NCBI GenBank assembly: GCA_043819795.1
Contig: JBDREN010000083.1
Coordinates: 5,298-69,297 of the forward strand
DNA from: Elusimicrobiota bacterium
Lineage (GTDB): Bacteria; Elusimicrobiota; Elusimicrobia; UBA1565
Length of the DNA: 64,000 nucleotides
Reading direction: 5' to 3'
In this document: positions 715 to 59,397 of the stretch, in pieces
How positions within the stretch are numbered: the stretch's first letter is position 1
How the letters are laid out: the number at the start of each line of letters is the position of its first letter
Program-made: the position numbers and the translations under genes
The notes under the pieces: model-generated
The model's input: the letters and a program-made list of their open reading frames with translations, nothing else
Databases searched by the model: none
Told to the model about the DNA's origin: nothing

Positions 715-2379
715 TTAGAACATTACCCTCAGGTTGAAGGATGTACGGTCGTCTTTGTAGTTGAACTGGCCGCTGAAGCGCGAATGGCGCTGCCGCCGGC
801 CGTAGGCGATCCCGGTGGACAGCCAGCGCCGGACCGCGTAGTCGGCGCTCAGGGTCCCGCCGTAGAGATCGTCGCGCCGGTTGGCCGACTCCCCGGACAC
901 GGTGGACGACTCCGGGTAGCGGTCGGTCTGGAGGCTCCCGTCGATGGACACCTTCAGCTTGTGGTACGTATGGCTGGCGCCCAGGCTGGCCCCCGTCGCG
1001 ACGTAATAACGGTTGCTGGAGAAGGTCGCCTCGTTGATCCTGCGGAACGCGCCGATCCGCACATTGGTGCGGCTTCCCGGGGCGTAGACCAGCTGGACGG
1101 AGGTCAGCAGATTCCGAACGTCCCTGTCGCCGCCGGCGGGGGCGTAGTCGTAGCGGCGCAGCTGCGCGTCGGCCTGGACTCGCCCCGAGAGCTTCGCCGT
1201 CAGGCGCCCGTCCACCCCCAGCCCGAAGCGGTGGGACTTCGAATGCTTCCGCGCTCCCGCGGAGTAGTGGATGATCTGGCGGCCGTAGGCGGCGAACAGG
1301 CGCGTCTTCGGCTGCAGCCGTATGCCCGCCTCGCCTTCTATCGAAAGCTCGAAGCGGTTGAGGTTAGAGGAAAGAGACGGGTCGAGGTACTTGTGCAGCA
1401 CGTGCAGCCCGGAAAGCTTGTAGACGAAGCGCCGGCTGCGGGCGTGATCGACGCTCACGCCGAGATCGGCCTTCGTGCGCCGCTTCCGGGCGACGAGCTC
1501 GCTGAAGGCCGGGTCCTCCGTGTTGAGATAGGTCTCCCACGCGCGCATCGAGACGCCCCTGCGCCCCTTGTGGGCGAAAGCCACCTTGATGAGCTGATCC
1601 ACGGAGTTGTTGGCCTTCGGCTGCCGGGAGTACGTGGTCAGCTTCGAGTCGTAGACCACGTCCAGGCGGTTGCGCCGGTTGAACGGGACGGCGAAGTCCG
1701 CTCCCAGGTTGTTCTGGGTGATCCAGGAGCTCCTCACTCCTCCGCCGGTGCGAGCCCCGTTCGCCCTGTCGGGCGGGACGAGATAGATGTTCGAGTCGTA
1801 TGTCTGCCTCAGGCCGTAGTACGGATGCACCTCGATGACCAGGCGCAGCTCCGGCTTCTTGAAGCGCGCCATCTTGTCGAAGGCCCTGGCCAGCCCGGCG
1901 AGCGGGTCCCAGGCGGCGGGTGGAGCGGGCTCCTCGGGGAGCGGGGGCCTGAGGGGAGCGGGCAGCTCTCCGGCCTTGGGCCCGGTCAGAGGCACGAACT
2001 GCCCGGCTCCGACACCGACGGCGGCCGCGCCGCGGGGGGTGACCTCGACCTCCCCGGCGTGGACGAGCATATGCCCCTCCCCTTCCGCGATCAGGAACGT
2101 GAACGAGTCGCCCTTGTCCGCGCGGACCAGCGTCTCCTCCACCAGCAGCAGAGCGTCACCCTCGACGATGGACGCGCGCGCGCCGGAAGGCAGAGAATAG
2201 CCGGAAGAACCGGGAGCGAGGCGGACCGGCCGCTTGTCCACCTCCAGGAGCAGCTTGTCCGAAAAACCGATGACCTGCAGCTTCAGGTCCGCCTTCGTTT
2301 GAGCCAAGCAGGTGTTCGCCGCGATGAGAAGGCCGGCAGCCGCTATACAAGCGCGGATACTCCGGTCCCAGTCAATCAT
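715..2379 (-). CDS. outer-membrane beta-barrel protein (554 aa from MIDWDRSIRACIAAAGLLIAANTCLAQT signal peptide; C-terminal ...FNLRVMF aromatic terminus typical of OMPs)
   Basis: ORF 715..2553; internal Met at 2379 followed by signal peptide; alternating beta-strand pattern and C-terminal F. Confidence 0.6.
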   Translation of the reverse strand: MIDWDRSIRACIAAAGLLIAANTCLAQTKADLKLQVIGFSDKLLLEVDKRPVRLAPGSSGYSLPSGARASIVEGDALLLVEETLVRADKGDSFTFLIAEGEGHMLVHAGEVEVTPRGAAAVGVGAGQFVPLTGPKAGELPAPLRPPLPEEPAPPAAWDPLAGLARAFDKMARFKKPELRLVIEVHPYYGLRQTYDSNIYLVPPDRANGARTGGGVRSSWITQNNLGADFAVPFNRRNRLDVVYDSKLTTYSRQPKANNSVDQLIKVAFAHKGRRGVSMRAWETYLNTEDPAFSELVARKRRTKADLGVSVDHARSRRFVYKLSGLHVLHKYLDPSLSSNLNRFELSIEGEAGIRLQPKTRLFAAYGRQIIHYSAGARKHSKSHRFGLGVDGRLTAKLSGRVQADAQLRRYDYAPAGGDRDVRNLLTSVQLVYAPGSRTNVRIGAFRRINEATFSSNRYYVATGASLGASHTYHKLKVSIDGSLQTDRYPESSTVSGESANRRDDLYGGTLSADYAVRRWLSTGIAYGRRQRHSRFSGQFNYKDDRTSFNLRVMF

Positions 2380-2439
2380 CCTGGACGATGGGCGCGCCGC
2401 ATCCGATAGCGATTCCTCCTTACGACGACAATCCGGCAA

Positions 2440-2480
2440 GAAAAACGCCGCGGCGCCCCCCGCGGGGGGGTTTGTCGCGG
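2440..2480 (-). terminator. GC hairpin (CCCCCCCGCGGGGGG / CGCCGCGGCG) followed by TTTTTCTT on minus strand between LysM gene and OMP gene; terminator or attenuator
   Basis: Palindrome plus T-run read on minus strand; sits between a TTGACA-17-TATCCT promoter-like sequence and the AAGGAGG of the OMP leader. Confidence 0.3.
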
Positions 2481-2604
2481 CGTCAATGGTCCTAAAGTCC
2501 TTATAGGACTTTTGGGAACATCGAAGGATAACCGAAATTACGCGATTTGTCAAGACTCTACACGCTCTTTTCGCAAAGTAGCCTTACTGTGGCGGAGCCT
2601 GCCC

Positions 2605-3378
2605 TCACCTCTTGACCACCGGCACCAGCAGCTTCTGGCCCGGCGTCAGCTCCCCTCCGCGCTGGATCCTGTCGTGATTGGCCTGATACAGCTCGATCCA
2701 GCGCTCGGCGCTCCCGTAAAGCTTGGTCGCGATGCTGCGCAGCGTGTCTCCCCGCCGGACCACGTAGATCCGCGCCCGCGACTCCTCGGAGGGAAGGCCC
2801 CCGTCGCGGAGCGTGGCCTCGATGACGTCGAGGCGCTTGCGCGACTCCTCGGCCTCGCGCTTGGCGCGGCGCGCCTCCGCCTGGGCCTCTTCGACCTCCC
2901 TCTTGAGTTTGTCGAGCTCCTCGGACGACGGAGCGGGGACCTCGACAGAATCCCCCGCCTGCCCCGGATCCGGCGCGGCGGCCGCCGGCGCCTCGACCTG
3001 GATCACCTCCGGGGGACGCGAAGCCTTGGCCGCCCAGCCTGTTCCCGGCGGGGCCTCCACCGTCAAGCGGTAAGCCGCCGAGAGCGCCTCTTCGGGGATC
3101 GCGGAATCCTCTCCCAGGGTCGCGATGAAACGCCCCTTCTCGGCCAGAACGTAGCGGGACTCTCTCCAGACCTCCTTGCCACCGGCGAATTCGTTCCAAA
3201 GGCGGAAGTGCAGCAGGAAGGTCCCGTTCTGCGGTTGGCCTCCGGAATCGGTGAGCTCCCCGGAATATCGCAGGGTCGTCCTGCCCGCGGATGCCGGCAG
3301 ACACAGGATCATGACCGCCAGGGCCGCCAAAGCGCACGGACGAACGCCGGATGTGGATGTGTCGCGCGTCGTTCTCAT
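2605..3378 (-). CDS. LysM-domain periplasmic protein with signal peptide and central coiled coil (257 aa)
   Basis: Start MRTTRD at 3378 with GGAGGA SD; ATGA overlap with upstream response-regulator stop; C-terminal LysM motif YVVRRGDTLRSIATKLYG...YQANHDRI...L.PGQKL. Confidence 0.8.
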   Translation of the reverse strand: MRTTRDTSTSGVRPCALAALAVMILCLPASAGRTTLRYSGELTDSGGQPQNGTFLLHFRLWNEFAGGKEVWRESRYVLAEKGRFIATLGEDSAIPEEALSAAYRLTVEAPPGTGWAAKASRPPEVIQVEAPAAAAPDPGQAGDSVEVPAPSSEELDKLKREVEEAQAEARRAKREAEESRKRLDVIEATLRDGGLPSEESRARIYVVRRGDTLRSIATKLYGSAERWIELYQANHDRIQRGGELTPGQKLLVPVVKR

Positions 3379-4625
3379 GGGATCTCCTCCCGTATTCGTT
3401 CTTCGAAGGCCGACAAGGGCCGGACATGGACGGTGCCGGAGCCGTCCCGGCCCATCCATACGTCGTCGCCCCGCAGCGTGAAGCCGGACAGCGGCGCCCC
3501 CCCCTCGTTCAAGAGCGGGAGGCTGTAGACGGCCAGGACGCCCAGCCTGGCGTCGAGCCGGTGCCTGTAGATCATCCGCGTCTCCGAGTCGGCCGACCAG
3601 AAATACGAGCCGTCCTTGAAGATGGAGGAGGGGGCCCTGCCCGGGGCCGGATAGCTCTCGAGCACCGTCAAGCCGGCGTCGATCCCATGCTGATAGAACC
3701 GCCGCTCCGAGGCGTCGCTGGACCACAAGTAGCGACCGTCGAAATAGACCCCGGCGGGGTTCGGTCCCGGGCTCCGATAGGCGCGCACGAGAGAGAAACG
3801 CTCGTCGAGGCGGCGCTTCTGGATCTCGCGCTTCCAGGAGTCGCATACGTAGAGATGCTCGCCCGAAACGGCGATCCCCGTGATATGCGTCTCCGGCAGG
3901 TGAACGGAGCGGACGACCTCGAGGCGGTTGCCCCGGCGCTCGTACTCGTAGACGCTCTGCGTGACCCAGTCGGCGCTCCAGAGCCGGTCCCCGCGCCAGA
4001 CAAGCGCCGTGGCGTTCTCGTGGGGGATGGCGAAATCCCTGCCCGCCTGCCGTCCGTAGAGCGTCCAGAGGATCCAGGCGCAGAACGCTCCCGCGATGAG
4101 CGCGCCCGCCAGCAGCCACGGCCACCCGGACGCTTCGCGCTTCGCCGGCCCGGCGGACCGGCCGCGCGCCGGCAGAGGCGCGGGACGGGCGTCCAGCGGC
4201 GCGATGACCCCGCGGACCTTCTCCGCGAGACGGCGTCCGAGGACTCCCATCCCTTCCGGAGCCTTGCCGCCGGTGAGAACGCGGTCCACGGTCTCCCTCA
4301 GCTCCCGGTTGCTGAAAGGCTTGGCCAGATAGTGGCTCGCGCCCAGCTGCATGACTTCCACGGCCGACTCCACGCTGCCGTAGCCGGTCACCATCACGAC
4401 CGGCGTCGTCCCATCGACCTCCCGAAGCTTGCGCAGGATCTGCACGCCGTCCATCCCCGGCAGGCGCATGTCCAGCAAGACGAGGTCCGCGCCCTCGCGG
4501 GACAAAAACTGCAGCGCGGTGGGGCCGTCCCCGGCCTCGTAGACCTGGTGACCCAGCCGGCTAAGGACGTTCGCGAGCGCCATCCGCATGTCCGCTTCGT
4601 CGTCTACCACCAGGATGCGTGCCAT
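3375..4625 (-). CDS. response regulator with N-terminal REC domain, one TM helix and a C-terminal extracytoplasmic repeat (beta-propeller-like) domain
   Basis: MARILVVDDEADMRMALANVLSRLGHQVYEAGDG..LVLLDMRLPGMDG = CheY-like receiver; TM WPWLLAGALIAGAFCAWILWTLY; 5 repeats with (L/F)(W/Y)xxD(W/S) motifs. Confidence 0.85.
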   Translation of the reverse strand: MARILVVDDEADMRMALANVLSRLGHQVYEAGDGPTALQFLSREGADLVLLDMRLPGMDGVQILRKLREVDGTTPVVMVTGYGSVESAVEVMQLGASHYLAKPFSNRELRETVDRVLTGGKAPEGMGVLGRRLAEKVRGVIAPLDARPAPLPARGRSAGPAKREASGWPWLLAGALIAGAFCAWILWTLYGRQAGRDFAIPHENATALVWRGDRLWSADWVTQSVYEYERRGNRLEVVRSVHLPETHITGIAVSGEHLYVCDSWKREIQKRRLDERFSLVRAYRSPGPNPAGVYFDGRYLWSSDASERRFYQHGIDAGLTVLESYPAPGRAPSSIFKDGSYFWSADSETRMIYRHRLDARLGVLAVYSLPLLNEGGAPLSGFTLRGDDVWMGRDGSGTVHVRPLSAFEERIREEIP

Positions 4626-4626
4626 G

Positions 4627-7600
4627 TCATCCTCTCTTCGCTTCGACCGAAAGCGTCACAGTCGAGGTGCTGCCCGCGTCCTTCTTGCTCCGGAACTCGA
4701 AGGAACCGCCGTGCGCCGCGACGATCCGTTTCGCGATCGCCACGCCCAGCCCCAGGCCGCCGGCCTTCATGGTGTAGAACGGCCGGCCCACATCCTTGAC
4801 GTGCTCCGGCGCCACTCCGGCGCCGGTGTCGGAGACCTCGACGCGGACGGTCCCGCGCGCCGCCTGATAGCGGGCCCTGATCGTCAGAGTGCCTCCCTCC
4901 GGCATCGCCTCGATCGAGTTGAGCAGCAGGTGCAGCAACGCCTCCTTGAGCCGCTCCGAATCGCCGCGAAGCTCCGGGACACCCTCCGCGACATCCGCCA
5001 CGATCCTGATATGCTTCTCGTCGCACTGCCGGGCGACCTCCGCGACGGCCGAGTCGATCCACGCCTCGACCTCGAGCGCCTGCGGCTTCAGGCCCAGGGG
5101 GCGAGTGAAGTCCGTGAGCTGCTCCAGACGCTCCCGCAGGTTCCCGATCGCCCGGAGGATGGCGTCCATGGTCGCGCGCTCCTTGCCGCCGACCCACAAT
5201 CCGGAGAGCCGGTCCTCCGCCAGGCTCTGGATGATGCCCAGCGGGTTGCGGATCTGATGGGCGATCCCGAAGACGAGATCGGTGAGCTCGGTCTCGAAGG
5301 CCACCTGCGGCAGGCGCCCCGTCTCCGCCTCGGGCTTCAGCCCGGAGAGCAGCCGGTCGCGCAGCTGACGGAGCTCCCTCTGCCGCCGCTCGATGTCGAC
5401 CTCCGCCCCGGCAAGCTTGTCCTCGCGCCCCTGGGACTGCCTTTCCCTGGCCGTCATCTCCTCATCGAGCTTCCGGCGACGACGCTCGAGCTCGGCCTCC
5501 TCATTCTTGAGCCGCTCGCGCAGCTTCTTGTCCGTCCCCCGCAAGAGCTCCTCGACTTCCTCGCGGCGCCGCTCGACCTCCGCTTCCTTCTGAGCGGACT
5601 CGTCCATGAGGCGCTTCTCGCCGGACTGCTCGCGCTCCTTGAGCGCCTTATCGCGAGCGTCGAGCTCCGCCTCCCTCTTGTGAAGCTCGGACGACGCGGT
5701 TTCCTGCTGCTTCTGCAGGCGCTCGCCTTGGAGCCGCGCGGTCTGCTCGACCTGGACGGCGCTCTGCTCTTCGAGCTCCTTGCGGCGCTCATCGAACTCA
5801 GCCTCGAGCCTGGTGCGCTCCACCACGAGCCTCTTGCGGTTGGCGGCCAAGAGGGCCGACTCCTTCTCGGCCAGGACGGTCCGCATCTCGCGCTCGAGCT
5901 CCTCGCGACGCCGCGCCTGGTCCTCATCCGCCGCCCTCTGCGACTCGCGCAGCAGACGGCGCTCGTGCTCGAGCTGCGCGTCAAGGTCCCGCTCGTGCGC
6001 CAAACGGCGCTCCTCCCCCTGCTTCTCCAGGAGGTCCTCGCGCTTGCGCAGCTGATCCTCCAGGCTCTCCGCGTGCAGGCGGAACTCCTCCTCCTTCTCC
6101 TTGAGCTGCGCGCGGAGATCGTCCTCTTTGGTCTGCAGATCCCGGTCGTAACGCGCGCGCTCCTCGCGCCGGATGCCGCGACGCGCCTCCTCGACCTTGT
6201 GCAGGAACTCCTTCTGAAGCGCGGCGCGCTCGGCGTCGAGGCCCTCCTCGCGCCTGGCCATCTCATCGCGCAGAGCGACGTGCATCTCCTCGGACGACTT
6301 GCGCAGCTCCGCGCGGTTGCGCTCCTGAGCCTCGCTGACCTCATTGAGCAGCGCCTCCTCCCGCTTCTTCCACGCGCGCTGAAGCTCCTCTTCCCTGCCC
6401 AGATGCTCCCGCTGCAGGGCCGTCTCGCGCTCGCGGAAGTCGCGCTCGAGCTCGGCGCGGCGGGCGTCGAGCCCCGCACGGGCGCGCTCGAGCGCCTCGC
6501 GCTCCGCCGCGACGGACTGCCGCAGGTCGCTGCGCTCCCGCTCCAGCTCGGCCTCGCGTTCCTCGACCGACTCGCGCATGGCCGTCTCCTTGCGCGCGTA
6601 GGCTTCCCGCAGCTCCGTCTCCCGGGCCTTCAGCTTCCGGCGACTCTCCTCGACCTCGACCTCGAGCTCGGCCTTGGCCTTCGCCCAATCCTCCCGCAAC
6701 GCCTCCCGCTGCGCATCGAGATGACCCGAGACCTCCGCCTCGGCCTCCTCGCGCGCGCGCCGCAGCTCGGCCTCCTTCTCGCTGACCGCCTTCTCCAGAG
6801 CCCGCTCCCTCTCGCGGTACTCCCGGGCCACTCCGCTCTTAAACGACTCCAGCTCCCGGGACCGCCGCACCTCCTCGGCCGCGAGCTCGGCGCGCTCCCG
6901 CTCGAGCTCCCCGTGACGCGCCTGGTAGGCGGCCTGCAACTCCTCCTGCCGGTTGCGATACTCGGCCTCCAGGCCGGCCCGGGCCTTTTCGACGTCCCGA
7001 CTTCGCTCCGCCAGCGCGGCGCTCTTGCTCTCGATCTCCCGGACCTGCTCCTGCCGCTCCCGCTCGAAGCGCGCGGCCAGCTCGGTTCTCTGGTCGGCCA
7101 GCTCCTTGCGAAGCTCGGCCTCGCGATGAACGAAGGACTCCTCAAGAGCCTGCTCGCGCTTCCGGAGCGAATCCTCCACACGCTTTTGGGCCGCCCCCAG
7201 CCCCTCGGTCTGGCGTTCGAGCTCGGCCTGACGCGCGCGAACGCCCTGCTCCTGCTTCTGCTGCTCCATGGCCAGAGCATCGCGAAGCTCGGCCTCGCTC
7301 TGCGCGAACGACTCCTCAAGAGCCTGCTCGCGTTTCCGGAGCGAGTCCTCCACGCGCTTGCGGGCCGACTCCAACTCCTCGGTCTTACGTTCGAGCTCGG
7401 CCTGACGCGCGCGAACGGCCTGCTCCAGCGTCTGCTGCTCCGCGGCCAGCGTCTCGCGGTCGCGCTCGAAGCCGGCGCGCAGCTCCCGTTCGCGCAACGC
7501 CGAGGCGGAACGCACCCCCTCCTCCCGCGCCCGGAAGGCGTTCTCGAGCTGCGTCTCGCGCTCACGCAGGCTTTTCTCAACCTGTAATTTGGACGCGTCG

Positions 7601-10600
7601 AGTTCCCGCATCCGCCGCGCCAGCTCCGCCTCGAGGCGCTCGCGCTCAGCGGCGAGCTCCTCCTCTTTCTGCCGGACCGCCGATTCCACCTCGGCCGCGC
7701 GGTCGCCGTGCTCGCTCTCCAGCAGCGACCGCCGGTGCGCGAGCTCTTCTTGGAAAGCCTTGCGCTCCCGCTGCGTCCGGGCGGAAAGCTCCGCGTCCCG
7801 CTTGGCGAACCCCGCGCGCAGCTGTTCCTCCCGCGCCGAGTAGGCGCGCTGCAGATCGGCCTCACCCTCCCGCGCGCGCTCCTCGAGCGCGAGGCGAGCC
7901 TCCTCGAGCGCCTTTTCCTTGCGCGCGAGCTCGTCCTGTCGCTGCTCGGCGGCCTGATCGAGCTGCTTTTCCTTATATATGAGCTCGGCCTGGCGCTCGG
8001 CAAGGACGCGCTCGTGCTCCTCGTACGTCTCCTGAAGCCGCCGGCGCTCCTCGACGAGCGCGGCGCGCAGCTCGCTCTCTCGAGCCGCCAACGCCGAGCG
8101 CGACTCCTCCTTCCGCTTCTCGAACTCGCGCTCGAGCCGCGCCTCGCGTTCCTGCAGCCTCTTTTCCTCGTCCATCCGGGACGTCTCCAGCTCGCGCTTC
8201 TTGCGCCCCGTCTCGTCCTCGATGCGGGTGCGCTCGCGCTCGATGGCCTCCTCCCTCCCGCGCAACACCAGGTCCATCTCACGCTGACGGTCCTCGAACG
8301 CCCGGTGCATCTCGGCGCGCTCGCTCTCCGACTCCACCTTGCGCCGCTCAAGACGCTCCATGGCCTGGGCGCGCTCGTTGTTCGCGGCGTCCTCGCGCTT
8401 CCGGAAGTCCGACTCGAGCTCCGATAGACGCTGCTGGTGGGCCTTCTCCAGATCAGCCTCCTGGGACCGGATCGCCTTCTCCAGCTCGAAACGCAGGCGG
8501 TCCAGCTCACCCTCCCTTCGGTCGTACTCGGCCTCAAGCGCGGCGCGCTGCTTCTCAAGAGCCGCCTCGAGCTTCCGTCGAGACTCGTCCTCCCAGCGGG
8601 CCTCGCGCTCGTTGAGACGCTCCGTGAAGGACCTGAGCTCGGCCGCCAGGCGGTCCTCGGCCTCGCGCTTCGAAAGATCCTGCTTATGCTCCCATTCGGC
8701 CTTCAACTCGGCCTCGAGCTGGAGGAAGTTCTTCTGAAGCGCATCTTCGCGCTCCCGGTAGAGAGCGTCGAGAGCGGCCCGCTCGCGGGACTGATTGTCC
8801 TGCATCTCGGAGACCATCGCCTGCTCGCGCCGACGCAGATCCTCGCCAAGAGACTCGTCCTTGGACTTGTACTCAGCCTCGAGGGCCTGCCTCCGCGAGT
8901 CAAGGTCCTTGACGCGCGACTCCAGCTCGGCGGCCTGCGCCGCCATCGCCTTGCGATGCTCCTCCTGGAAGTGCTGGTACTCCTTCGCGATCTCCCTGCG
9001 CTGATGGTCCAGCCAGGCGTCGTTGCGCTTCTTCATCTCCGCGCGGGACTCCGCGAGGCGGCGCTTGTACTCGCGCTCGAGATTGTCCTGCTGGTTCTTC
9101 AGCTCGGCTTCCCGCTGGGCGATCGCCTCGCGCATCTCGCCTGCGATGCGCTCGGTCTCGTAGCGTATGCGAGCGCGATAGCTCTCGCGCTCCTCGTCGA
9201 CCTTCTGCAGCAGCTCGCTCTCACGCTGGCTCCACCGCTTCTCGAGCTCAGCCTCGCGCTCGAGATAGGACTTATCCAGCCTCGTCTCCTTCTCCCGCAT
9301 CTCCTTTTGGAGCTGCGCCTGCAGCTTCTCCAGCTCCAGCTGCTTGCGCTCGTATTCCTCCTCCAGGACCGCACGTTGCGACTCGAGCTGCGCCGCCCTC
9401 TTGACCTCGAACTCGGCCTCCGACTGGCGGACCTTGCGCTGGATCCCGTCCTCCTGCTCCTTGAGCGAGCGTTTGAGCTTCTCGGCGGACTCCTCCTCCA
9501 GGAGTTGGGCCTTGTGCGCCCGGTCATCCTTCAGCTGCTTCTCGAGGCTCACATAGTTCGAATGCAGGGTCTCCTCGCGGCTCCGGTAAAGCTCGTCGAG
9601 GGACTGACGCTCCCGCGTCAGGACGACCTGCTGCTCCTCGATGAAGCGTCTCTCCCTGAGACGCCACTCGTCGGCGAGCTCCTCCTCCCGCTTCCGGTGG
9701 TAAGCCTGGAGGGCGTCGCGCCGCTTGGCCAGCTCACCCTCCCGCTCGTTCGACTCGGCGTTGAGCGCCTCGAGGTGGGCGCGGGCGTGCTCCTTCTGCT
9801 GCTCCCGTTCGCGGATGGTCATGCGGCGCTGGCGCTCCAGCCACTGCTCCTTCTCCTTCTCGGACTCGGCCAGGGCGTCTCTCTTCCAAGCTTCGAACCG
9901 CACCGCCAGCTGCGAGTCCGCCTCCGCGAGGGCCGCGGCGTGCTGCTCCCGCTCCTTCTGACGCTCGGCCTCGAGCGCCTGCACGGTCTCCGCGAAGCGC
10001 TGCGCCTGCGCCTGGAGGGCTTCCTGCCGCCGCGAGAGGTATTCCCTCTCCTTGCCCGTCCATAGCTCCTGAAGGCCGCGCTCCATCTCGATGTACTTCT
10101 CCTCGCGCTGGGCTTCTCGGCGCTTCTGGGCCTCCTGAATGGAGACGCGCTCCGCCTCGTGCCGGCGCTCGCGCGACTGCAGGTCCTCCCAGAGCGCCCG
10201 CTTCTCCGCATCCAACTTCTCGAACTCTTCGCGGACGCGGCTCAGCTCCAGATCCTTCTCCGAAAGCTGCTTCTCGCGCTCCAGGAGCTCGCTCTGATGC
10301 CCTTCCTTCAGGTTCTTGACCCGAAGCTTCCACTCGGCCTCGCGCCGCTCGTACTCGGCGTCCAGGTGCCTGGCCTGCTGGAGCAGATGCCGGCCCTGCG
10401 CCTCCTTGAGCGCCCGGACCTCCGCGGCGTGAGCGTCCTTGGCTTCGGCCTCCCGGCGATCGTAGCGGTCCTCGAGGTCCCGCTCCAGGCGCGCGTAATC
10501 CTGCTTCATCTTCTCGGACCGGCCGAAGAGATCGGCCTCATCGCGCTGGCGCCGCTGGTCGTGCTCCTCCTTCGTCTTCTCCATCTCCATGCGGGCCGCG

Positions 10601-12225
10601 CGGCGCACCTGCTCCAGCGCGATCTCGTAGCGGCGCACCAGCTCGGCCTCCCGCAGGTGCCACTGCTTATCGAGGTTCTTCTCCTTCTGGATGTACTCCG
10701 AGATCACGGTCTGCTTCCACGTCCGGAACTGCTCCTCGATCGTCTGCTGGGTCCTCTCCAGCTCGGCGACCCGGGCCTGGTAGGCCTCCTCGAGCGTCCG
10801 GTCGCGCTGCTCGAACTGCGACTTCAGGGAAGCCCGCTCGGCCTCGACGGCCTTCTCATGCTCCTCGAGGAGCTCCATCTTGCGGCGCGTCCACTCCTCG
10901 CGCAGCGCGTTCTCCTTCGCCAAGTACTGCTCCTGCATCTCCACGTGCTTGTGCTGGGAGGCCTCCTCGAGCGCCTTCTCGCGCTCTTGCACGCGGTTCT
11001 CGGCCTCCGCCCAGCGGGCGTTGAACTCGGCTTCGAGGGCGGTGCGTTGGCGGTCCCCGTCGCGCTGGACCTCGGCCTCCCGCCGCTCGAGGTCCCGGGA
11101 CCGCGCCTGATACTCCTCCTCGAGGGCCTTGGCGCGCTGTCGCGCCCGCTCGGCGGCTTCCGCCTTTTCCTTCTCGAGCTCGTCCTCGACGCGCTTGAGC
11201 AGCTGCGCCTCCTTACGGATGTGGCTCTGCTGCTGCTGGGTCTCCATCTCGGCGTAACGCGTCTCCACGCTCTTCACACGCTTCTGGAAGTCCTCCTCCA
11301 GCTCCCGACGCCGGCGCTCGAGAAGCCCTTCGATCTCGCGCGAGCGGTCGGCCAGCGCGCGGGCACGCTCCTCGAACTGCTCCTGCACGGCCGTATCCAG
11401 CTTCTCACGCGCATCCTTCGCGCGCTGCCACAAGCCGTTCTCGAGCTCCGCCCAGGCGGCCTGCAGCTCGGCCTCGCGCTTGCCGTACTTCTCCTGCAGG
11501 GCGAGCTCCTTGGACCGGAACTCCCCGAAGAGCTTCTCCTCGCGCTCCTGGAGCTTGAGCTCGCCCTCCTTCGCGGCGGCGGCCAGCACCCGCTGGAACT
11601 CCTCGTTCTTGCGCCTAAGATCGAGTATCTCGCGCTCCTTGAGCTCGAGCTCCGCCTCGCGGTTCTTCAGCGTGTTGAGGATCTCCTCGTCGCGTTTCTG
11701 GCGCAGCCGCTGCACCATATCCTGGTCGCGGTGGAAACGGTTGACGAGCTCGGCCTTCTCGCGCTGGGAGGCCATCAGCTCGGCGTCGCGCTGCTCGAGA
11801 ATGCGCCTGAGCTCCCGCCACTGCTCCTCCTTGGAGCGGTGCGTGCCCTTCCACTGCTGGACCTCTGCCGTCAGGCGGGACAGCTCCTCGTCCATGTGCC
11901 CGCGGTCGCGCTCCACGCGCGTCCGTTCCTCTTCGCGGACCTCGAGACGCACACGGTCGCGCCAGCGCTGCTCCTGATCCCGATGATTCTTGCGCTCCTC
12001 CTCCCAGCCTTTGGACTCGTCCTTCCATGCGGCGACCTGTCTCGTCAACTCCTCCTTCTCCTGCTGGAGCATCTGCTGTCCGTTCTGGGCTTCCTGGAGG
12101 TTCCCCTTGAGGCGCACATTCATATCCTGGAGGTCACGGATCGTGGCCACGGCCCCCCGGATCGCAAGTCGCGCAGCTTCCAGATCGGTTATCTCTCGAT
12201 ATGCCTCTTCATCCCATGGGTTCAT
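4627..12225 (-). CDS. giant (~2530 aa) coiled-coil sensor histidine kinase: ~2250 aa of E/R/K/A/L/Q-rich heptad sequence then HisKA (IAHQIRNPL) + HATPase_c (GTGLGLGVA)
   Basis: Single ORF 4627..12309; real start MNPWDEEAYRE at 12225 supplied by upstream repeat unit (GGGAGGcgaccATGA); no TM segments evident; internal 58-codon tandem duplication. Confidence 0.85.
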   Translation of the reverse strand: MNPWDEEAYREITDLEAARLAIRGAVATIRDLQDMNVRLKGNLQEAQNGQQMLQQEKEELTRQVAAWKDESKGWEEERKNHRDQEQRWRDRVRLEVREEERTRVERDRGHMDEELSRLTAEVQQWKGTHRSKEEQWRELRRILEQRDAELMASQREKAELVNRFHRDQDMVQRLRQKRDEEILNTLKNREAELELKEREILDLRRKNEEFQRVLAAAAKEGELKLQEREEKLFGEFRSKELALQEKYGKREAELQAAWAELENGLWQRAKDAREKLDTAVQEQFEERARALADRSREIEGLLERRRRELEEDFQKRVKSVETRYAEMETQQQQSHIRKEAQLLKRVEDELEKEKAEAAERARQRAKALEEEYQARSRDLERREAEVQRDGDRQRTALEAEFNARWAEAENRVQEREKALEEASQHKHVEMQEQYLAKENALREEWTRRKMELLEEHEKAVEAERASLKSQFEQRDRTLEEAYQARVAELERTQQTIEEQFRTWKQTVISEYIQKEKNLDKQWHLREAELVRRYEIALEQVRRAARMEMEKTKEEHDQRRQRDEADLFGRSEKMKQDYARLERDLEDRYDRREAEAKDAHAAEVRALKEAQGRHLLQQARHLDAEYERREAEWKLRVKNLKEGHQSELLEREKQLSEKDLELSRVREEFEKLDAEKRALWEDLQSRERRHEAERVSIQEAQKRREAQREEKYIEMERGLQELWTGKEREYLSRRQEALQAQAQRFAETVQALEAERQKEREQHAAALAEADSQLAVRFEAWKRDALAESEKEKEQWLERQRRMTIREREQQKEHARAHLEALNAESNEREGELAKRRDALQAYHRKREEELADEWRLRERRFIEEQQVVLTRERQSLDELYRSREETLHSNYVSLEKQLKDDRAHKAQLLEEESAEKLKRSLKEQEDGIQRKVRQSEAEFEVKRAAQLESQRAVLEEEYERKQLELEKLQAQLQKEMREKETRLDKSYLEREAELEKRWSQRESELLQKVDEERESYRARIRYETERIAGEMREAIAQREAELKNQQDNLEREYKRRLAESRAEMKKRNDAWLDHQRREIAKEYQHFQEEHRKAMAAQAAELESRVKDLDSRRQALEAEYKSKDESLGEDLRRREQAMVSEMQDNQSRERAALDALYREREDALQKNFLQLEAELKAEWEHKQDLSKREAEDRLAAELRSFTERLNEREARWEDESRRKLEAALEKQRAALEAEYDRREGELDRLRFELEKAIRSQEADLEKAHQQRLSELESDFRKREDAANNERAQAMERLERRKVESESERAEMHRAFEDRQREMDLVLRGREEAIERERTRIEDETGRKKRELETSRMDEEKRLQEREARLEREFEKRKEESRSALAARESELRAALVEERRRLQETYEEHERVLAERQAELIYKEKQLDQAAEQRQDELARKEKALEEARLALEERAREGEADLQRAYSAREEQLRAGFAKRDAELSARTQRERKAFQEELAHRRSLLESEHGDRAAEVESAVRQKEEELAAERERLEAELARRMRELDASKLQVEKSLRERETQLENAFRAREEGVRSASALRERELRAGFERDRETLAAEQQTLEQAVRARQAELERKTEELESARKRVEDSLRKREQALEESFAQSEAELRDALAMEQQKQEQGVRARQAELERQTEGLGAAQKRVEDSLRKREQALEESFVHREAELRKELADQRTELAARFERERQEQVREIESKSAALAERSRDVEKARAGLEAEYRNRQEELQAAYQARHGELERERAELAAEEVRRSRELESFKSGVAREYRERERALEKAVSEKEAELRRAREEAEAEVSGHLDAQREALREDWAKAKAELEVEVEESRRKLKARETELREAYARKETAMRESVEEREAELERERSDLRQSVAAEREALERARAGLDARRAELERDFRERETALQREHLGREEELQRAWKKREEALLNEVSEAQERNRAELRKSSEEMHVALRDEMARREEGLDAERAALQKEFLHKVEEARRGIRREERARYDRDLQTKEDDLRAQLKEKEEEFRLHAESLEDQLRKREDLLEKQGEERRLAHERDLDAQLEHERRLLRESQRAADEDQARRREELEREMRTVLAEKESALLAANRKRLVVERTRLEAEFDERRKELEEQSAVQVEQTARLQGERLQKQQETASSELHKREAELDARDKALKEREQSGEKRLMDESAQKEAEVERRREEVEELLRGTDKKLRERLKNEEAELERRRRKLDEEMTARERQSQGREDKLAGAEVDIERRQRELRQLRDRLLSGLKPEAETGRLPQVAFETELTDLVFGIAHQIRNPLGIIQSLAEDRLSGLWVGGKERATMDAILRAIGNLRERLEQLTDFTRPLGLKPQALEVEAWIDSAVAEVARQCDEKHIRIVADVAEGVPELRGDSERLKEALLHLLLNSIEAMPEGGTLTIRARYQAARGTVRVEVSDTGAGVAPEHVKDVGRPFYTMKAGGLGLGVAIAKRIVAAHGGSFEFRSKKDAGSTSTVTLSVEAKRG

Positions 12226-12348
12226 GGTCGCCTCCCATGGAGATGGACGCGGCCATCCCCTGCGCGATGCTCGGTCATGGTCGCCTCCCACGGCAGTCGA
12301 CGCGACCATTTCCTGCGCTATGCTCGGTCATAACACTGCCTCCAGGTA
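12222..12348 (-). repeat. two tandem 57-nt copies of SD/start-codon-bearing intergenic repeat (mini-ORFs MTEHSAGNGRVDCRGRRP* and MTEHRAGDGRVHLHGRRP*), with own GGAGG SD, ATGA-coupled to each other and to the giant HK start
   Basis: Reverse complement matches repeat at 50606-50719 and 59231-59397; internal 8-bp inverted repeat ATGGTCGC/GCGACCAT; GGGAGG 6 nt before terminal ATG. Confidence 0.7.
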
Positions 12349-12547: not shown

Positions 12548-12774
12548 TAACAGTCCGTGGCAAAAGTCTTCCGGGGCCTGCGATCGCCTGGATGCGGCCT
12601 GCGCCCGCGTTGCTCCTCGGTCACACCGGGCCCCGGCAGGGGCCCAGTGCCGCACGACCTCAGGAAATGCTTCGGAGCGCTGTCATCCCGTAGAGGGATG
12701 CTACCTCGTCGCGCCTTGGCTCGGCTCGCCCCGGACGATTTCGCCATCCGAAATACTTTTGCCACGGACTGTTA
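12548..12774. mobile_element. MITE-like element: 20-bp perfect terminal inverted repeats TAACAGTCCGTGGCAAAAGT flanking ~187 bp, in intergenic region between two HK genes
   Basis: Left IR 12548-12567, right IR 12755-12774 (exact reverse complement); right IR overlaps stop codon of PAS-HK gene; symmetric spurious ORFs MAKVFR on both strands. Confidence 0.45.
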
Positions 12775-13839
12775 AGGCCGCGATCGAGCGGGGAAGACAA
12801 CGGTGACGGCCGTCCCTCGGCCGGCCTCGCTGTCGAAGGAGATGGTCGCCTCGTGCTCGGCCAGGACGCGCTTGGCGAGATAGAGCCCCAGACCCGTGCC
12901 GTCCTCTTTGGTCGTGAAGAAGGGCGCGCTGACCTTCGCCAACACCTCGGGCGCCATCCCCGCGCCCGAGTCCCCCACGACGAGACGCGCCCCCCCCCGC
13001 TCCGGGACGTCCGTGACGACGCGCAGGCGCCCCCCTTTCGGCATGGCCTCGATCGCGTTGACCAGCAGGTTATGGACCACGGCGCGGACATGCTGCTCGT
13101 CGAGGAGCAGTCTCGGGATGTCGCCGAGCCGCACATCGAGCTCGATCCGCTGCTTCTGGCACATCTTCTCGACGAGACGGACGACGCCGCGCGCCACCTC
13201 GTTGAGCGAGCCCTCGCGCAAGAGAGACTTCCCCACCTTGGCGAAGTCCAGAAGGGCCCGTATCGAAAGCGACCCGTGCCGGGCGTTGCGGAGGATCATC
13301 TCGAGGTTCTCTTTCATCTTGGAGTCGGGGGAGAGGGACTCGAGCCCGAACTCGGCCGTGCTGGCGATGACGTGCAGCGGCGTGCGCATCTCGTGAGCGA
13401 AGGTCGCCGCCATTCGCCCGACAGCGCTGAAGCGCTCCATCCTGACCAACGCCTCCTGGACGGCCTTGTGCTCGGGGGCCGTCTCGAAGTCGGCCACGGG
13501 GGGGCTGATCATGACGAGGAAGGCCTCGGGGCCCTTCCCCAGCGAGCGGACGGTCAAGAACACCCTTTCCGGGCTCCCGTCGCGGCGCGTCATCCGCGCC
13601 TCGTAGTTTTTGAGCACCTTCACGTTGCAGGCCGCCTTGAGCAATCCGACGCATTCCTCCCGCCTCGGGAAGAACTCCGCGAAGTCGCGATCGACAGCCT
13701 CCTCGAGGGGGACGCCAAGGAGCTCGGCGGCTCCGCGGGACCACGTCCGGACCACGCGGGAACCGTCGAGCCCGACGAGCGCATCCTCGGACTCGTCGAA
13801 CATGCAGGCGAAAAGGCGGTCTTTCAACCGTTCTTCCAT
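12772..13839 (-). CDS. PAS-domain sensor histidine kinase (PAS + HisKA FAHEMRTPL + HATPase_c)
   Basis: Motifs FAHEMRTPLHVI, NLLVNAIEAM, GDSGAGM, GTGLGLYLAKR. Confidence 0.85.
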   Translation of the reverse strand: MEERLKDRLFACMFDESEDALVGLDGSRVVRTWSRGAAELLGVPLEEAVDRDFAEFFPRREECVGLLKAACNVKVLKNYEARMTRRDGSPERVFLTVRSLGKGPEAFLVMISPPVADFETAPEHKAVQEALVRMERFSAVGRMAATFAHEMRTPLHVIASTAEFGLESLSPDSKMKENLEMILRNARHGSLSIRALLDFAKVGKSLLREGSLNEVARGVVRLVEKMCQKQRIELDVRLGDIPRLLLDEQHVRAVVHNLLVNAIEAMPKGGRLRVVTDVPERGGARLVVGDSGAGMAPEVLAKVSAPFFTTKEDGTGLGLYLAKRVLAEHEATISFDSEAGRGTAVTVVFPARSRP

Positions 13840-14028: not shown

Positions 14029-14919
14029 ATGAAGCCCGAGTCACCAACCGCAGCGCAGAAGCCGGCCGAGATCCGCGAGGGCCTGTGGAAGATCAAGCTG
14101 CCCAATCCGAAGTCCTTCTTCAAGATCGGGGTCGGCAAGAAGCACGCCCAGGCGAACTCTCTGTTCCTGGAGATCGACGGCAAGCGCCGCTTCGAGATCG
14201 GAAACGACTGCGACACCTGCCACTTCTGGTTCAAATGCCTGCAGGATCCTAAGATCTTCGCCCAGAAGAAAGTCGTCAACCTCCCGAAGTCCTTATCGGT
14301 GCCGCGCCCCCTCGACGCAAAGCTCATCCGCGAGATCCTCCCGGTGATCGAGCTCATGGACAAGGGGGATCACTACATATTCAACACGAAGCTCCAGCTC
14401 GCCGGACCGTACCGTTCCGACGACGAGTCCTCCTACTTCTACAACAGCGAGTTCATGGAGATATGGGACATCGAGGACCCCGCCTCCGAGGACCTCCTCT
14501 CCGGCTGGGAGCATTACGAGGGCAAGACCCCGCGCGTCTTTCGGCACGACGGTGTGATCGAAAAGCAGTTCGACTTCGTGATCCCTCTCGTCCCCCAACA
14601 ACGTCTCAAGCAGGAGAACATACGCGTCTACCAGCAGATGATCGCGGGCGGGGACCGGCCGCGGGTCCTGCTGCTGGGCATGCTCCACCGCCCCGTCCCC
14701 GGGAGCGTCTCCTCCGGACAGACGAAGAACCTGCATTCGTACTTCGCGGGCTTCGTGCTCGACGGGCACCACAAGCTGGCCGCCTATCAGCGCGCCGGGG
14801 TCCCGGTGAACTCCCTCGTAGTCTTGTCCCAGAAGGCCAGCAAGTACTTCCTGCTCGAGGGCGAATCCGCCCCTCAACGGACGCGCCTCGAGGACCGCCT
14901 GGCCTCGATGGCGACCTGA
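14029..14919 (+). CDS. hypothetical cytoplasmic protein (296 aa), lower GC than surroundings, no recognisable domain
   Basis: ORF with AGGAG SD and strong promoter; codon composition less GC-skewed. Confidence 0.6.
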   Translation: MKPESPTAAQKPAEIREGLWKIKLPNPKSFFKIGVGKKHAQANSLFLEIDGKRRFEIGNDCDTCHFWFKCLQDPKIFAQKKVVNLPKSLSVPRPLDAKLIREILPVIELMDKGDHYIFNTKLQLAGPYRSDDESSYFYNSEFMEIWDIEDPASEDLLSGWEHYEGKTPRVFRHDGVIEKQFDFVIPLVPQQRLKQENIRVYQQMIAGGDRPRVLLLGMLHRPVPGSVSSGQTKNLHSYFAGFVLDGHHKLAAYQRAGVPVNSLVVLSQKASKYFLLEGESAPQRTRLEDRLASMAT

Positions 14920-50609: not shown

Positions 50610-50719
50610 CCGAGCATAGCGCGGTTTCGGCTGCGTGCCTCAGCCATTCCCTCGCGTTTGGCCGCAAACGCTTCGGTCACAGGAATGGTCGCGTCGATCG
50701 CCGCGGGAGGCGACCATGA
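50606..50719 (+). repeat. 114-nt long form of SD/start-bearing intergenic repeat: mini-ORF GTG..TGA (37 codons) whose GTG overlaps upstream GT4 stop (GTGA) and whose TGA overlaps downstream GT2 ATG (ATGA)
   Basis: Near-identical to 59231-59344; internal hairpins GCGTTTG-gccg-CAAACGC and ATGGTCGC..GCGACCAT; GGGAGG 6 nt before ATG 50716. Confidence 0.7.
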
Positions 50720-59234: not shown

Positions 59235-59397
59235 CCGAGCATAGCGTGGTTTCGGCTGCGTGCCTCAACCATTCCCTCGCGTTTGGCCGCAAACGCTTCG
59301 GTCACAGCAATGGTCGCGTCGATCGCCGTGGGAGGCGACCATGACCGAGCATAGCGCAGGAAATGGTCGCGTCGATCGCCGTGGGAGGCGACCATGA
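59231..59397 (+). repeat. long (114 nt) + short (57 nt) tandem units of SD/start-bearing repeat between hldA and kdsB; GTGA overlap with hldA stop, ATGA between units, ATGA into kdsB
   Basis: Direct comparison with 50606-50719 (4 substitutions) and 12222-12335. Confidence 0.7.

Follow-up and report, generated by a model that had tools for sequence, protein, structure and literature searches.

Gene organization of the locus

The window (the whole stretch analyzed, 64,000 nucleotides of an Elusimicrobiota genome) carries on its minus strand a giant open reading frame (ORF) resembling a histidine kinase (HK), flanked by genes for a response regulator, envelope proteins, and a second kinase. The features are as follows.

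715–2553 (−): BBP2_2 outer-membrane beta-barrel-like protein, 612 aa
2605–3378 (−): secreted LysM protein, 257 aa (LysM E-value 1.1e-6), ATGA overlap with the response regulator stop
3375–4625 (−): cognate response regulator of 416 aa with REC, a TM helix, and a five-bladed beta-propeller in the periplasm; 1 nt from the HK stop
4627–12225 (−): giant HK-like ORF, 2,532 aa plus stop codon
4630–5082 (−): CA/HATPase_c domain, residues 2382–2532, in which the N, G1, and G2 motifs are preserved
5101–5301 (−): DHp domain, residues 2309–2375
5302–5343 (−): Pro/Gly linker GLKPEAETGRLPQV between rod and kinase core, residues 2295–2308
5344–11625 (−): hendecad-based helical rod, residues 201–2294
7096–7443 (−): sole internal duplication of recent date, two copies of 174 nt (58 aa) at 87% identity
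11626–12225 (−): conserved head plus heptad-like segment, residues 1–200
12222–12331 (−): 5' leader of the giant gene, a 53-nt tandem repeat in 2.1 copies
12772–13839 (−): canonical PAS-HisKA-HATPase_c kinase encoded upstream (355 aa; H-box HEMRTP)

From N- to C-terminus, the giant protein consists of a head within a ~200-aa heptad-like segment, a rod of ~2,100 residues, a flexible Pro/Gly linker, and a DHp plus CA module. It is soluble and cytoplasmic and lacks a TM helix (Kyte-Doolittle means over 19 residues peak at 1.16), and its gene is probably co-transcribed with that of the REC-TM-propeller protein. The initial annotation had described a giant, TM-less, nearly all-helical protein with a DHp/HATPase_c module at its C-terminus, and this description stands. 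The sequence it reported to be dominated by E, R, K, A, L, and Q is so by count: residues 1–2280 contain E 21.5%, R 16.1%, A 12.2%, L 10.6%, Q 7.4%, and K 6.5%. The longest Pro-free stretch spans 2,294 residues; given 6.0% Pro in the 21 other ORFs of the window, the probability of such a run is ln P = −142.

The HK start is the last ATG of the 53-nt tandem repeat, so a start codon donated by a repeat element, as previously proposed, is upheld. Each leader copy terminates in GGGAGG-CGACC-ATGA, and the copies form two 18-codon uORFs that are coupled to the HK start by ATGA overlaps. An in-frame ATG at 12309 would lengthen the ORF; the ATG at 12225 is favored by homologue N-termini (MNPWDE / MSAWDD ... 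ITDLE) and by a GGGAGG 5 nt upstream.

We give almost no credence to the idea that the ORF is chimeric or repeat-expanded through faulty assembly or annotation. Its biased composition would fit such an error, as would the many gene calls of the family in metagenome-assembled genomes (MAGs) that are fragments with out-of-frame tails at the end. Against it, independent MAGs hold collinear orthologues of 2,058–2,548 aa with the same neighbors, and in-frame GC3 is 0.89. The concern about collapsed repeats is answered at the level of sequence: beyond the one 174-nt pair, which lies in the indel-prone C-terminal half of the rod, near-identical DNA repeats were not found in the ORF, and its remaining 'repeats' are compositional matches of 60–80%. 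Judged in this way, the giant ORF is real and not an assembly artefact.

A conserved head followed by a hendecad rod

The conserved head comprises ~40–60 aa and carries the motif ITDLEAARLAIRGAVATIRDLQDMNVRLKG at residues 12–41 (nt 12103–12192); invariant columns in alignment A3 are A18, R19, L20, A21, R23, G24, A25, L32, Q33, K40, and G41. The head profile finds only 80 representatives in 1.84 billion proteins. Against PDB sequences it returned coiled-coil noise only (FtsB, E-value 0.003; ApoA-IV, E-value 0.08), and a Pfam match to DivIVA was not found in residues 1–330.

Rod periodicity was assessed by Fourier and register analysis, with a tropomyosin sequence as control. The rod had been termed heptad-like, a label that applies only to the first ~200 aa: periods of 3.46–3.57 are confined to residues 1–200 (power 0.78 at 3.5), and residues 200–2290 have a hydrophobic period of 3.60–3.72 (11/3). 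Power in this region is 0.24 at 3.5 vs 0.92 at 3.67, compared with 0.79 and 0.24, respectively, for the tropomyosin control, and 80 of the 101 rod windows exceed the 95% shuffled null. The rod lacks the 3.5 periodicity of heptad coiled coils and behaves as a hendecad, with a period near 3.67 and core positions held over many repeats. In a register with 4-4-3 spacings, the L/Y/F/W/H position is 74% hydrophobic, the L/V/I position 62%, and a weak third position 33%, giving a narrow seam (a/(e)/h) whose phase is constant across about 430 aa. Ala makes up 5–8% at the two main core positions vs 12% overall, and per-register conservation is only modestly higher in core than in surface positions.

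The rod is highly charged (49% of residues, net charge −72) and contains only 20% large hydrophobics. Opposite charges are enriched at i+3/i+4 (z 3.5–6.1) and like charges depleted (z −4 to −8). The salt-bridging charge pairs typical of ER/K single alpha-helix (SAH) domains are thus present together with a hydrophobic seam. A spectrin-like ~106-aa or other regular bundle-length periodicity was sought in the rod and not found, Pfam identified no SMC or ABC domains in the protein, and the modelled helices reach 279 residues, unlike folded coiled coils of the spectrin-like type, with their three-helix repeat, or of the SMC-like type, with an antiparallel arm, a hinge, and split ATPase heads. The AlphaFold2 monomer, in which rod confidence is only 50–75 with a shallow alignment, contains rod helices of 279, 178, and 85 residues and breaks at residues 2013–2022 and 2201–2209. 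At ~0.15 nm per residue and assuming full extension, the rod would measure ~340 nm, in agreement with the earlier estimate of several hundred nm, beyond any characterized HK.

A kinase-type core behind a flexible linker

The C-terminal core is AtoS/ZraS-like (ZraS PDB 9jfj, E-value 1.3e-31 over residues ~2314–2529) and has the structural hallmarks of a class I (HisKA-type) HK, namely a DHp hairpin with His and a Bergerat-fold CA domain. AlphaFold2 models two DHp helices and an alpha/beta CA domain at pLDDT 80–95. The HATPase_c domain recognized at the outset is confirmed by Pfam (E-value 1.6e-21), and N704, D734, G736, G738, G760, and G762 are invariant in alignment A6. Pfam HisKA reached 20.5 bits vs a cut-off of 26.9 with the isolated C-terminus only, and was missed on the whole protein.

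The H-box, VFGIAHQIRNPL, contains the phospho-acceptor His2323 (nt 5257–5259), followed by Gln2324 at H+1 (nt 5254–5256) and Asn2327 at H+4 (HQIRN). It had been called canonical, a term that its H+1 Gln, in place of Asp/Glu, does not allow. In HisKA proteins the acidic H+1 is the general base and is reported to be strictly conserved, and Thr/Asn at H+4 is the phosphatase residue (PMC8292422); we adopt the roles of both positions from the literature (PMC8292422, PMC7005713). The giant protein thus departs from canonical HisKA autokinases at H+1, and as a sequence motif its Asn2327 is that of a phosphatase-competent protein. H-Q-x-x-N/T is invariant in 23/23 family members with a recognizable H-box, unlike the syntenic PAS kinases, which carry HE/HD. 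Because the H+1 Gln is invariant and the H+4 Asn and ATP-lid motifs are kept, the motifs suggest that the DHp/CA module is biased toward phosphatase activity on, or docking to, the REC rather than strong autokinase activity. The Gln at H+1 might leave some autokinase activity.

The linker contains G2295, P2298, G2303, and P2306. AlphaFold2 predicts no helix at residues 2295–2305, with pLDDT <50 at 2297–2305. Every rod-bearing homologue has a Pro/Gly counterpart, and bare-core kinases begin immediately past it. The coiled coil is consequently not continuous into the kinase, contrary to what had been proposed, as the linker interrupts the helix ahead of the DHp; the signal path of canonical sensor HKs, a continuous helix from an input module into DHp alpha-1, is absent.

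Relatives and the membrane partner

The giant protein belongs to a rare, previously undescribed Elusimicrobia family; a literature search did not find a description of it. The full-length query, compared with up to 8,000 word-sharing candidates, retrieved mostly unrelated PAS/GAF kinases, and profiles of the head only and of the response regulator only were far more informative. Orthologues from independent Elusimicrobia MAGs are collinear with the window protein. That of L005 has 2,548 aa and is 54% identical over 2,486 aligned residues with 8 gaps; others have 2,058 aa (L006) and 2,265 aa (L009). Over the first 1,000 aa the alignment of three species is gapless, and the absence of indels there among close relatives implies that length is locally constrained. 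Indels between orthologues were compared with multiples of 7 or 11, a comparison in which nearly any long gap fits 7a+11b and the alignment is uncertain.

Across the family, length varies widely. Kinase-bearing members that share the head are between 826 and 4,482 aa long, and rods range from absent to about 4,200–4,250 residues; since length is not conserved, the rod is not the 'ruler' first envisaged. Some orthologous cassettes with the same response regulator contain a bare core of 218–220 aa and no rod, which, together with the linker modelled as disordered before the DHp, speaks against the rod as a canonical 'sensor region'. Head-rod and kinase are also separable: L018, L019, L023, and L033 encode the head-rod on its own, in a gene that overlaps one for a rod-HK, and the window protein is collinear with the two products taken together. 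At L013, the head-rod is fused directly to a TM-propeller, without kinase or REC, and two contigs encode a head protein that stands alone (P0018). Split and fused relatives alike link the head-rod to the propeller.

The REC-TM-propeller partner adjoins the HK in all family loci. Its REC is a receiver by Pfam (E-value 7.8e-31), with D8, D9, D52, T80, and K102 invariant in alignment A1. A TM segment lies at residue 171 (Kyte-Doolittle mean 2.05), and the propeller is modelled at pLDDT 95, with glutaminyl cyclases as top PDB matches (TM-score 0.73–0.77). The LysM protein, whose N-terminus is signal-like and hydrophobic, is encoded also at L004, L005, L006, and L009, and the BBP2_2 barrel is syntenic in L004, L005, and L006 (45–50% identity). 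PorP/SprF-like barrels upstream of the gene at the P0001-3 loci are not homologous to the window barrel.

In both L005 and L009, the PAS kinase is the immediate upstream neighbor of the giant gene. It is also upstream in L006, with an extra REC protein between the two genes, and identity across L005/L006/L009 is 39–55%. At P0001-3 and the inspected bare-core loci no adjacent canonical kinase was seen; in L003 and L012, a small HK is encoded at a distance of a few kb.

Models for the rod and its core

The best explanation, to which we assign a probability of about 0.45, is that the rod is a segmented coiled coil serving as scaffold or tether for a kinase-impaired core directed at the membrane REC-propeller, with output in the envelope. 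Since the DHp dimerizes, a parallel coiled coil of two strands is the most likely form of the rod; it would have almost no twist, a small number of breaks dividing it into segments, and a length of several hundred nm. The rod would position the DHp/CA module, and hence the membrane REC-propeller, relative to the putative target of the head. Because the helix is interrupted before the DHp and the core is rod-less in orthologous systems, the rod should relay no conformational signal, and the bare 218-aa core found with the same response regulator in relatives points to the rod as a scaffold or tether rather than a sensor of the canonical kind. The DHp/CA module would act as phosphatase or docking partner of the partner REC, and in the clade of the window protein phosphate would probably be supplied by the canonical PAS kinase next to it. 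The location of the propeller in the periplasm and the neighboring LysM and outer-membrane barrel proteins suggest an output in the envelope. Counting against this model, the main core positions carry bulky aromatic/Leu residues, in contrast to the Ala-rich cores of the dimeric hendecads FilP and Scy (PMC9858780), so a simple two-stranded hendecad fits less well. Also against it are the low AlphaFold2 confidence in the rod, the modest conservation contrast between core and surface, the autokinase activity that the H+1 Gln might leave, and the loci at which no adjacent canonical kinase was seen.

This same bulky aromatic core is better suited to higher-order packing (PMC9858780), as if the rods folded back into antiparallel hairpins or bundles, or polymerized laterally in the manner of intermediate filaments, the protein then being mainly a filament subunit with a kinase-type module. 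The modelled breaks, the kinase-less head-rod paralogues, and the precedent of Scy and FilP also accord with this reading, which we nonetheless regard as rather unlikely given a phase constant over ~430 aa, no ~106-aa or other bundle-length period, and a net charge of −72. That each chain instead forms an ER/K-type SAH spacer and no coiled coil, the two rods of a dimer splaying as flexible arms, would suit the charge content and pairing, the scarcity of large hydrophobics, and the long isolated helices of the AlphaFold2 model. It is made distinctly unlikely by the seam itself, whose 3.6–3.7 period is phase-coherent over hundreds of residues and whose main positions are 62–74% hydrophobic. Eleven-residue amphipathic periodicity is also a feature of apolipoproteins, alpha-synuclein, and perilipins, and with a membrane-anchored partner and a weak ApoA-IV match of the head plus proximal rod profile (residues 1–~390), the repeats could bind lipid and coat the inner membrane. 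Yet the ApoA-IV match is not significant, the hydrophobic face occupies a narrow 2–3 of 11 positions, and the negative rod would be unfavorable on anionic bacterial membranes, so that we hold this to be very improbable.

An active sensor HK, in which the whole rod is a mechanosensor or ruler and a signal runs along a continuous coiled coil to the DHp, would account for the great length of the rod, its indel-free first 1,000 residues, and the intact ATP-binding motifs. This too is improbable: the linker breaks the helix in all homologues, orthologous cassettes dispense with the rod, length varies between 826 and 4,482 aa among proteins with one and the same head, and Gln stands in place of the general base at H+1. 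A more speculative proposal, for which the odds are low, is a cell-scale cytoskeletal head-rod tether of very small Elusimicrobia whose kinase-impaired end docks on the REC reversibly under phospho-control by the PAS kinase, thereby linking a cytoplasmic filament mechanically to the envelope, where the propeller would lie next to LysM and outer-membrane partners. At ~340 nm, the rod would be about as long as cells able to pass sub-0.2-µm filters are wide. If true, this proposal would describe a new bacterial coupling of cytoskeleton to envelope, and the head-rod/TM-propeller fusion at L013 would be its unregulated version.

Comparison with known systems

The family would hold the longest helical rods on any two-component protein, and at up to ~4,250 residues few predicted bacterial rods of the coiled-coil type would match them in length. 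Its members provide a naturally dissected series with a single conserved partner (rod-less; split head-rod plus rod-kinase; fused head-rod-kinase; and rod-membrane-partner fusion), which makes the combination of scaffold and phosphotransfer module testable. An invariant Gln at H+1 points to a predicted class of HK-like proteins whose primary activity would not be that of an autokinase and that pipelines annotate simply as 'histidine kinase'.

ER/K SAH domains, found for example in myosin VI/X, lack a periodic hydrophobic seam and are typically shorter than 200 residues. The giant rod shares their very high E/R/K content and enrichment of opposite charges from i to i+4, and differs in having a periodic seam. 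Scy and FilP of Streptomyces are hendecad coiled-coil cytoskeletal proteins with a DivIVA-like head and Ala-rich cores, the rod of Scy exceeding 1,000 residues (PMC9858780). Like these bacterial, cytoplasmic proteins, the giant protein begins with a short, conserved head containing heptads and continues as a very long, nearly all-hendecad rod that grows by internal expansion. Sequence homology to them was not found, however, and neither the DivIVA-like motif nor the Ala-rich hendecad cores of the FilP/Scy family are present; the rod is at least 2x longer and far more charged, with an aromatic/Leu/Val core, and it ends in DHp/CA, whereas Scy and FilP have no enzymatic domain.

With the class I cores of ZraS, AtoS, and NtrB (9jfj; NF007688, NF008468), the giant protein shares DHp and HATPase_c domains and the His, N, G1, and G2 motifs. 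It differs in having Gln for Glu at H+1, in lacking TM, periplasmic sensor, HAMP, and PAS regions, and in attaching its core to the preceding helix via a flexible Pro/Gly linker. DrBphP, the bacteriophytochrome of Deinococcus radiodurans, is a HisKA-type phosphatase with His at H+1 and Glu at H+4 (PMC8292422). Both have a HisKA-like DHp/CA without an acidic H+1; in DrBphP autokinase activity is absent or impaired and activity directed at the response regulator remains, and for the giant protein phosphatase activity is only inferred. DrBphP bears a photosensory module on a continuous helix, unlike the giant protein, which has Gln at H+1, Asn at H+4, and no sensor domain.

The partner propeller resembles bacterial and plant glutaminyl cyclases (3mbr, 3nol, 3nok, 2iwa) at the level of fold, with five blades and ~230 residues. 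Identity is only 12–16%, and unlike these enzymes the partner propeller is TM-anchored to a cytoplasmic receiver. We found this REC-TM-periplasmic-propeller architecture to be undescribed, and it implies inside-out signaling by a response regulator, which would be unusual.

The giant gene and its leader

The minus strand of the window (G+C about 68%) carries a single unbroken ORF ending at 4627, with in-frame ATG starts at 12309 and 12225. Translation of the giant gene probably begins at 12225, because GGGAGG lies 5 nt before this ATG and the N-termini of homologues (MSAWDD..., MDPLEN... and MNPWDE..., then ITDLE-ARLALRGA) begin at the same place. The resulting protein has 2,532 aa. Residues 4–2297, a run of 2,294, are free of proline, which makes up 6.0% of 21 other window ORFs (ln P about -142), and residues 1–2280 are rich in E (21.5%), R (16.1%), A (12.2%), L (10.6%), Q (7.4%) and K (6.5%). 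The initial annotation described the protein as lacking a transmembrane (TM) helix, and we found no TM segment; the top 19-residue Kyte-Doolittle mean, 1.16, falls in the G2 box.

An ORF of this size could be an assembly artefact of internal repeats, and the sequence bears the gene out. The only near-identical DNA repeat inside it is one recent 174-nt tandem pair (87% identity, 7096–7443); the remaining repeat 'families' are compositional matches at 60–80%. In-frame GC3 is 0.89. Collinear orthologues with the same neighbours occur in independent Elusimicrobia metagenome-assembled genomes (MAGs), at loci L005 (2,548 aa; 54% identity over 2,486 aligned positions, with 8 gaps), L006 (2,058 aa) and L009 (2,265 aa). 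Residues 1–1,000 align without gaps among the window, L005 and L006 proteins, and indels between orthologues are restricted to the C-terminal half of the rod. At the sequence level the ORF is thus not an artefact, an explanation we consider extremely improbable.

The start codon had been attributed to a repeat element, and this appears to be correct: the final ATG of the array at 12222–12331 is apparently the start at 12225. The array belongs to a dispersed intergenic repeat ending in a Shine-Dalgarno sequence and a start codon, present at

12222–12331 (-), before the giant gene
50600–50719 (+), probably supplying the start of an ORF from 50716
59232–59397 (+), apparently supplying the start of an ORF at 59394–60164

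The 15-mer GGGAGGCGACCATGA occurs 5 times (0.02 expected). The repeat takes a short 53-nt form and a long form of about 113 nt with a hairpin-like insert (GTGACCGAGC...GCTTCGGTCAC). Two short-form copies precede the giant gene (12225–12331, minus strand), each an 18-codon upstream ORF (MTEHSAGNGRVDCRGRRP, MTEHRAGDGRVHLHGRRP) whose TGA overlaps the next ATG (ATGA), so that uORF1, uORF2 and the giant gene follow in successive frames. This chain may provide translational coupling or a leader peptide.

A hendecad rod

The rod had been called heptad-like, a description that fits only residues 1–200, where the best period in 77-residue windows is 3.46–3.57; over residues ~200–2290 it is 3.60–3.72, and the signal lies above the 95th percentile of shuffles in 80 of 101 windows. 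Taken globally, large hydrophobic residues give a spectral peak at 3.66–3.68, and autocorrelation peaks at lags 11, 22, 7 and 18, with lags 3, 14 and 21 flat or negative. Spectral power of the rod is 0.24 at 3.5 and 0.92 at 3.67, the opposite of a tropomyosin control (0.79 and 0.24). When residues 205–630 are written in 11-residue rows, one position is 74% L/Y/F/W/H, another 62% L/V/I and a weaker third 33%, spaced 4-4-3 as in the a/e/h pattern of hendecads (11-residue repeats). An AlphaFold2 model of residues 1733–2532 (16-row alignment, mean pLDDT 69) contains helices of 279, 178 and 85 residues with short breaks at 2013–2022 and 2201–2209.

Several readings of the rod must be weighed. It is 49% charged, with opposite charges enriched at i+3/i+4 (z 3.5–6.1) and like charges depleted (z -4 to -8), a pattern characteristic of ER/K single alpha-helices. 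A single-helix spacer would account for this pairing and leave the seam unexplained, and seems rather unlikely; because seam and pairing occur together, the rod is best read from its sequence as a hybrid in which a self-stabilised helix carries a narrow hydrophobic seam parallel to its axis. A folded or polymeric filament we also regard as unlikely, if somewhat less so. The phase of the seam is constant over ~430 residues, and again within blocks of 200–240 residues, which argues for long continuous helices and against short helices in repeated bundles; the rod also lacks a ~106-residue periodicity. A lipid-binding amphipathic repeat appears very improbable.

A tethered kinase-type core

With the whole protein as query, Pfam returns only HATPase_c (residues 2421–2527, E 1.6e-21); this half of the predicted HisKA/HATPase_c pair holds, and HisKA stays sub-threshold even with the isolated C-terminus. 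The last ~220 residues match AtoS, ZraS and NtrB-type cores in NCBIfam and PDB sequence searches (ZraS 9jfj, E 1.3e-31). Rod and core are separated by a linker:

residues 2295–2308: GLKPEAETGRLPQV, with two Pro and two Gly

In the AlphaFold2 model there is no helix at 2295–2305 and pLDDT falls below 50 at 2297–2305; the DHp helices (2306–2341 and 2347–2374) and a confident CA domain follow. An equivalent P/G/S-rich stretch, ending 12–16 residues before the phospho-His, occurs in every rod-bearing homologue. At four Elusimicrobia loci (L014–L017) the same response regulator is partnered by a kinase that consists of nothing but a 218–220-aa core, beginning just past the linker point (MNDRDFEKLVFGMAHQIRNP), where similarity to ZraS likewise begins. 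Together these features indicate a rod appended by a flexible tether to a self-sufficient core, rather than a signalling helix continuous with the DHp. A true rod sensor or ruler, the reading first put forward, is improbable.

The H-box, AHQIRNP, is not the canonical one that had been claimed: H+1, the residue after the phospho-acceptor His2323, is Gln rather than acidic, both here and in each of the 23 family members whose H-box is recognisable. The adjoining PAS kinase has HEMRTP. The acidic H+1 of HisKA kinases serves as general base in autophosphorylation and has been reported to be strictly conserved; its mutation inactivates the kinase, DrBphP is a natural H+1 variant working as a phosphatase, and Thr/Asn at H+4 controls phosphatase activity (PMC8292422, PMC7005713). 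Asn at H+4 is kept in the giant protein, as are the N, G1 and G2 boxes, and we infer a DHp/CA module biased to a phosphatase or docking role.

Response regulator and envelope neighbours

Genes of the window-clade cluster

12772–13839: PAS-HisKA kinase
4627–12225 (-): giant gene
3375–4625 (-): response regulator, starting one nt past the giant gene's stop
2605–3378: secreted LysM protein, coupled to the regulator gene through ATGA
715–2553: BBP2_2 barrel

In the regulator, a receiver (REC) that has its five signature residues intact is joined by a TM helix to a C-terminal domain of 230 aa. The model of this domain is a five-bladed beta-propeller (pLDDT 95), and the nearest structures in the PDB are glutaminyl cyclases of bacteria and plants (TM-score 0.73–0.77, 12–16% identity). 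Upstream genes in other branches encode an fn3 protein with a T9SS-type C-terminal domain and a PorP/SprF-like barrel carrying LysM; these neighbours all point to the cell envelope.

The close relative L006 has an additional 462-aa protein (1615–3003) encoded between its PAS kinase and giant genes, with a receiver domain that shares 43% identity with the receiver of the cognate regulator. Two further window ORFs have no Pfam match: a 296-aa ORF with high GC3, divergent from the PAS kinase (14029–14919, +), and a 1,746-aa ORF (15168–20408, +) with a signal-like N-terminus, three tandem AHATNGKAPVKSAEKA(L/I)(Q/R)SKA repeats and a long low-complexity C-terminal region, rich in Gly, Ser and Pro, with a hydrophobic segment at its end.

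A plastic, modular family

The propeller as query retrieved 29 genomic loci, almost all in Elusimicrobia/Elusimicrobiota MAGs, and ~70 protein clusters. At the loci inspected, the gene upstream of the regulator encodes an HQ-type kinase (Gln at H+1) of very different lengths.

Lengths of kinase-side proteins

218–220 aa: L014–L017
~420 aa: L029 (adjacent ORF, H-box not recognisable)
~880–930 aa: L019, L022
1,484 aa: P0007
1,725 aa: P0001
2,058–2,548 aa: window clade
>3,164 aa: L012
3,956 aa: P0003
4,138 aa: P0002

A profile of the N-terminal head matched only 80 proteins among 1.84 billion representatives, the complete kinase-bearing ones including proteins of 826, 935, 3,751 and 4,482 aa; homologues of conserved length, proposed as a check on the initial annotation, are thus not what the same-head members offer. 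From this spread, length in the family is highly plastic. Long members have internal repeats of ~160/320 residues and the window protein has lags of 58 and 276 residues, so rods grow by duplication. In source databases the relatives go under the names 'signal transduction histidine kinase' or 'hypothetical protein'. Family entries (P0016–P0021 and many head-profile matches) are mostly fragments, several with Pro/Gly-rich tails that look out of frame, suggesting that frameshifts or contig ends often interrupt the giant genes in MAGs, so that family size and lengths would be underestimated.

The modules also occur apart. At four loci, a kinase-less head-rod protein of 1,183–1,285 aa is encoded by a gene that overlaps a rod and HQ kinase gene by 16–17 nt, and the regulator gene follows.

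Kinase-less head-rod genes

L018: 2987–6844
L019: 3049–6828
L023: 3552–7103
L033: 681–4253

These head-rod proteins end ...KLKLWKKE, and the second, coiled-coil kinase gene, whose start their stop overlaps, lies in another frame. Since four assemblies share the arrangement, the split is probably genuine and not the product of a frameshift error. The N-terminus of the window protein matches the head-rod proteins and its C-terminus the rod-HQ kinases, so it corresponds to a fusion of the two. In MAG FW305_bin.15 (L013, 8108–10654) a natural single-chain fusion joins the head motif and a ~570-aa Ala/Glu/Arg helical rod, via a poly-Pro linker, to a TM helix and propeller; kinase and REC are absent. 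A stand-alone paralogue (P0018, 399 aa; head plus short rod) is found on two independent contigs (L034, 10001–11200; L035, 2059–3258), on both adjoining a YtxH-family gene, with neither kinase nor propeller regulator adjacent. Read as gene arrangements, these cases link the head-rod physically with the propeller protein of the membrane and suggest that the DHp/CA-REC pair sits between them as a regulatable coupling.

Proposed mechanism and known systems

Building on the observed anatomy, periodicity, linker, motif states, family series and synteny, we propose, with a probability of roughly 45%, that the protein serves as a scaffold or tether, a rod with a distal binding head that holds a kinase-impaired, phosphatase- or docking-competent DHp/CA module. 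This module would act on the REC of the membrane-spanning propeller protein, with the neighbouring PAS kinase as probable phosphodonor; oligomeric state, catalytic bias, partner choice and output are putative elements of the scheme. Since the DHp is dimeric, the rod would most likely pair in parallel as a two-stranded hendecad coiled coil with almost no twist.

We found no description of such proteins in the literature. Hendecads have near-zero supercoil, and Scy is a hendecad rod of >1,000 residues with Ala-rich cores (PMC9858780). The core positions of the window rod, in contrast, are not Ala-rich, so one should not take a simple two-stranded state for granted; the giant protein is a two-component module combined with a hendecad rod.
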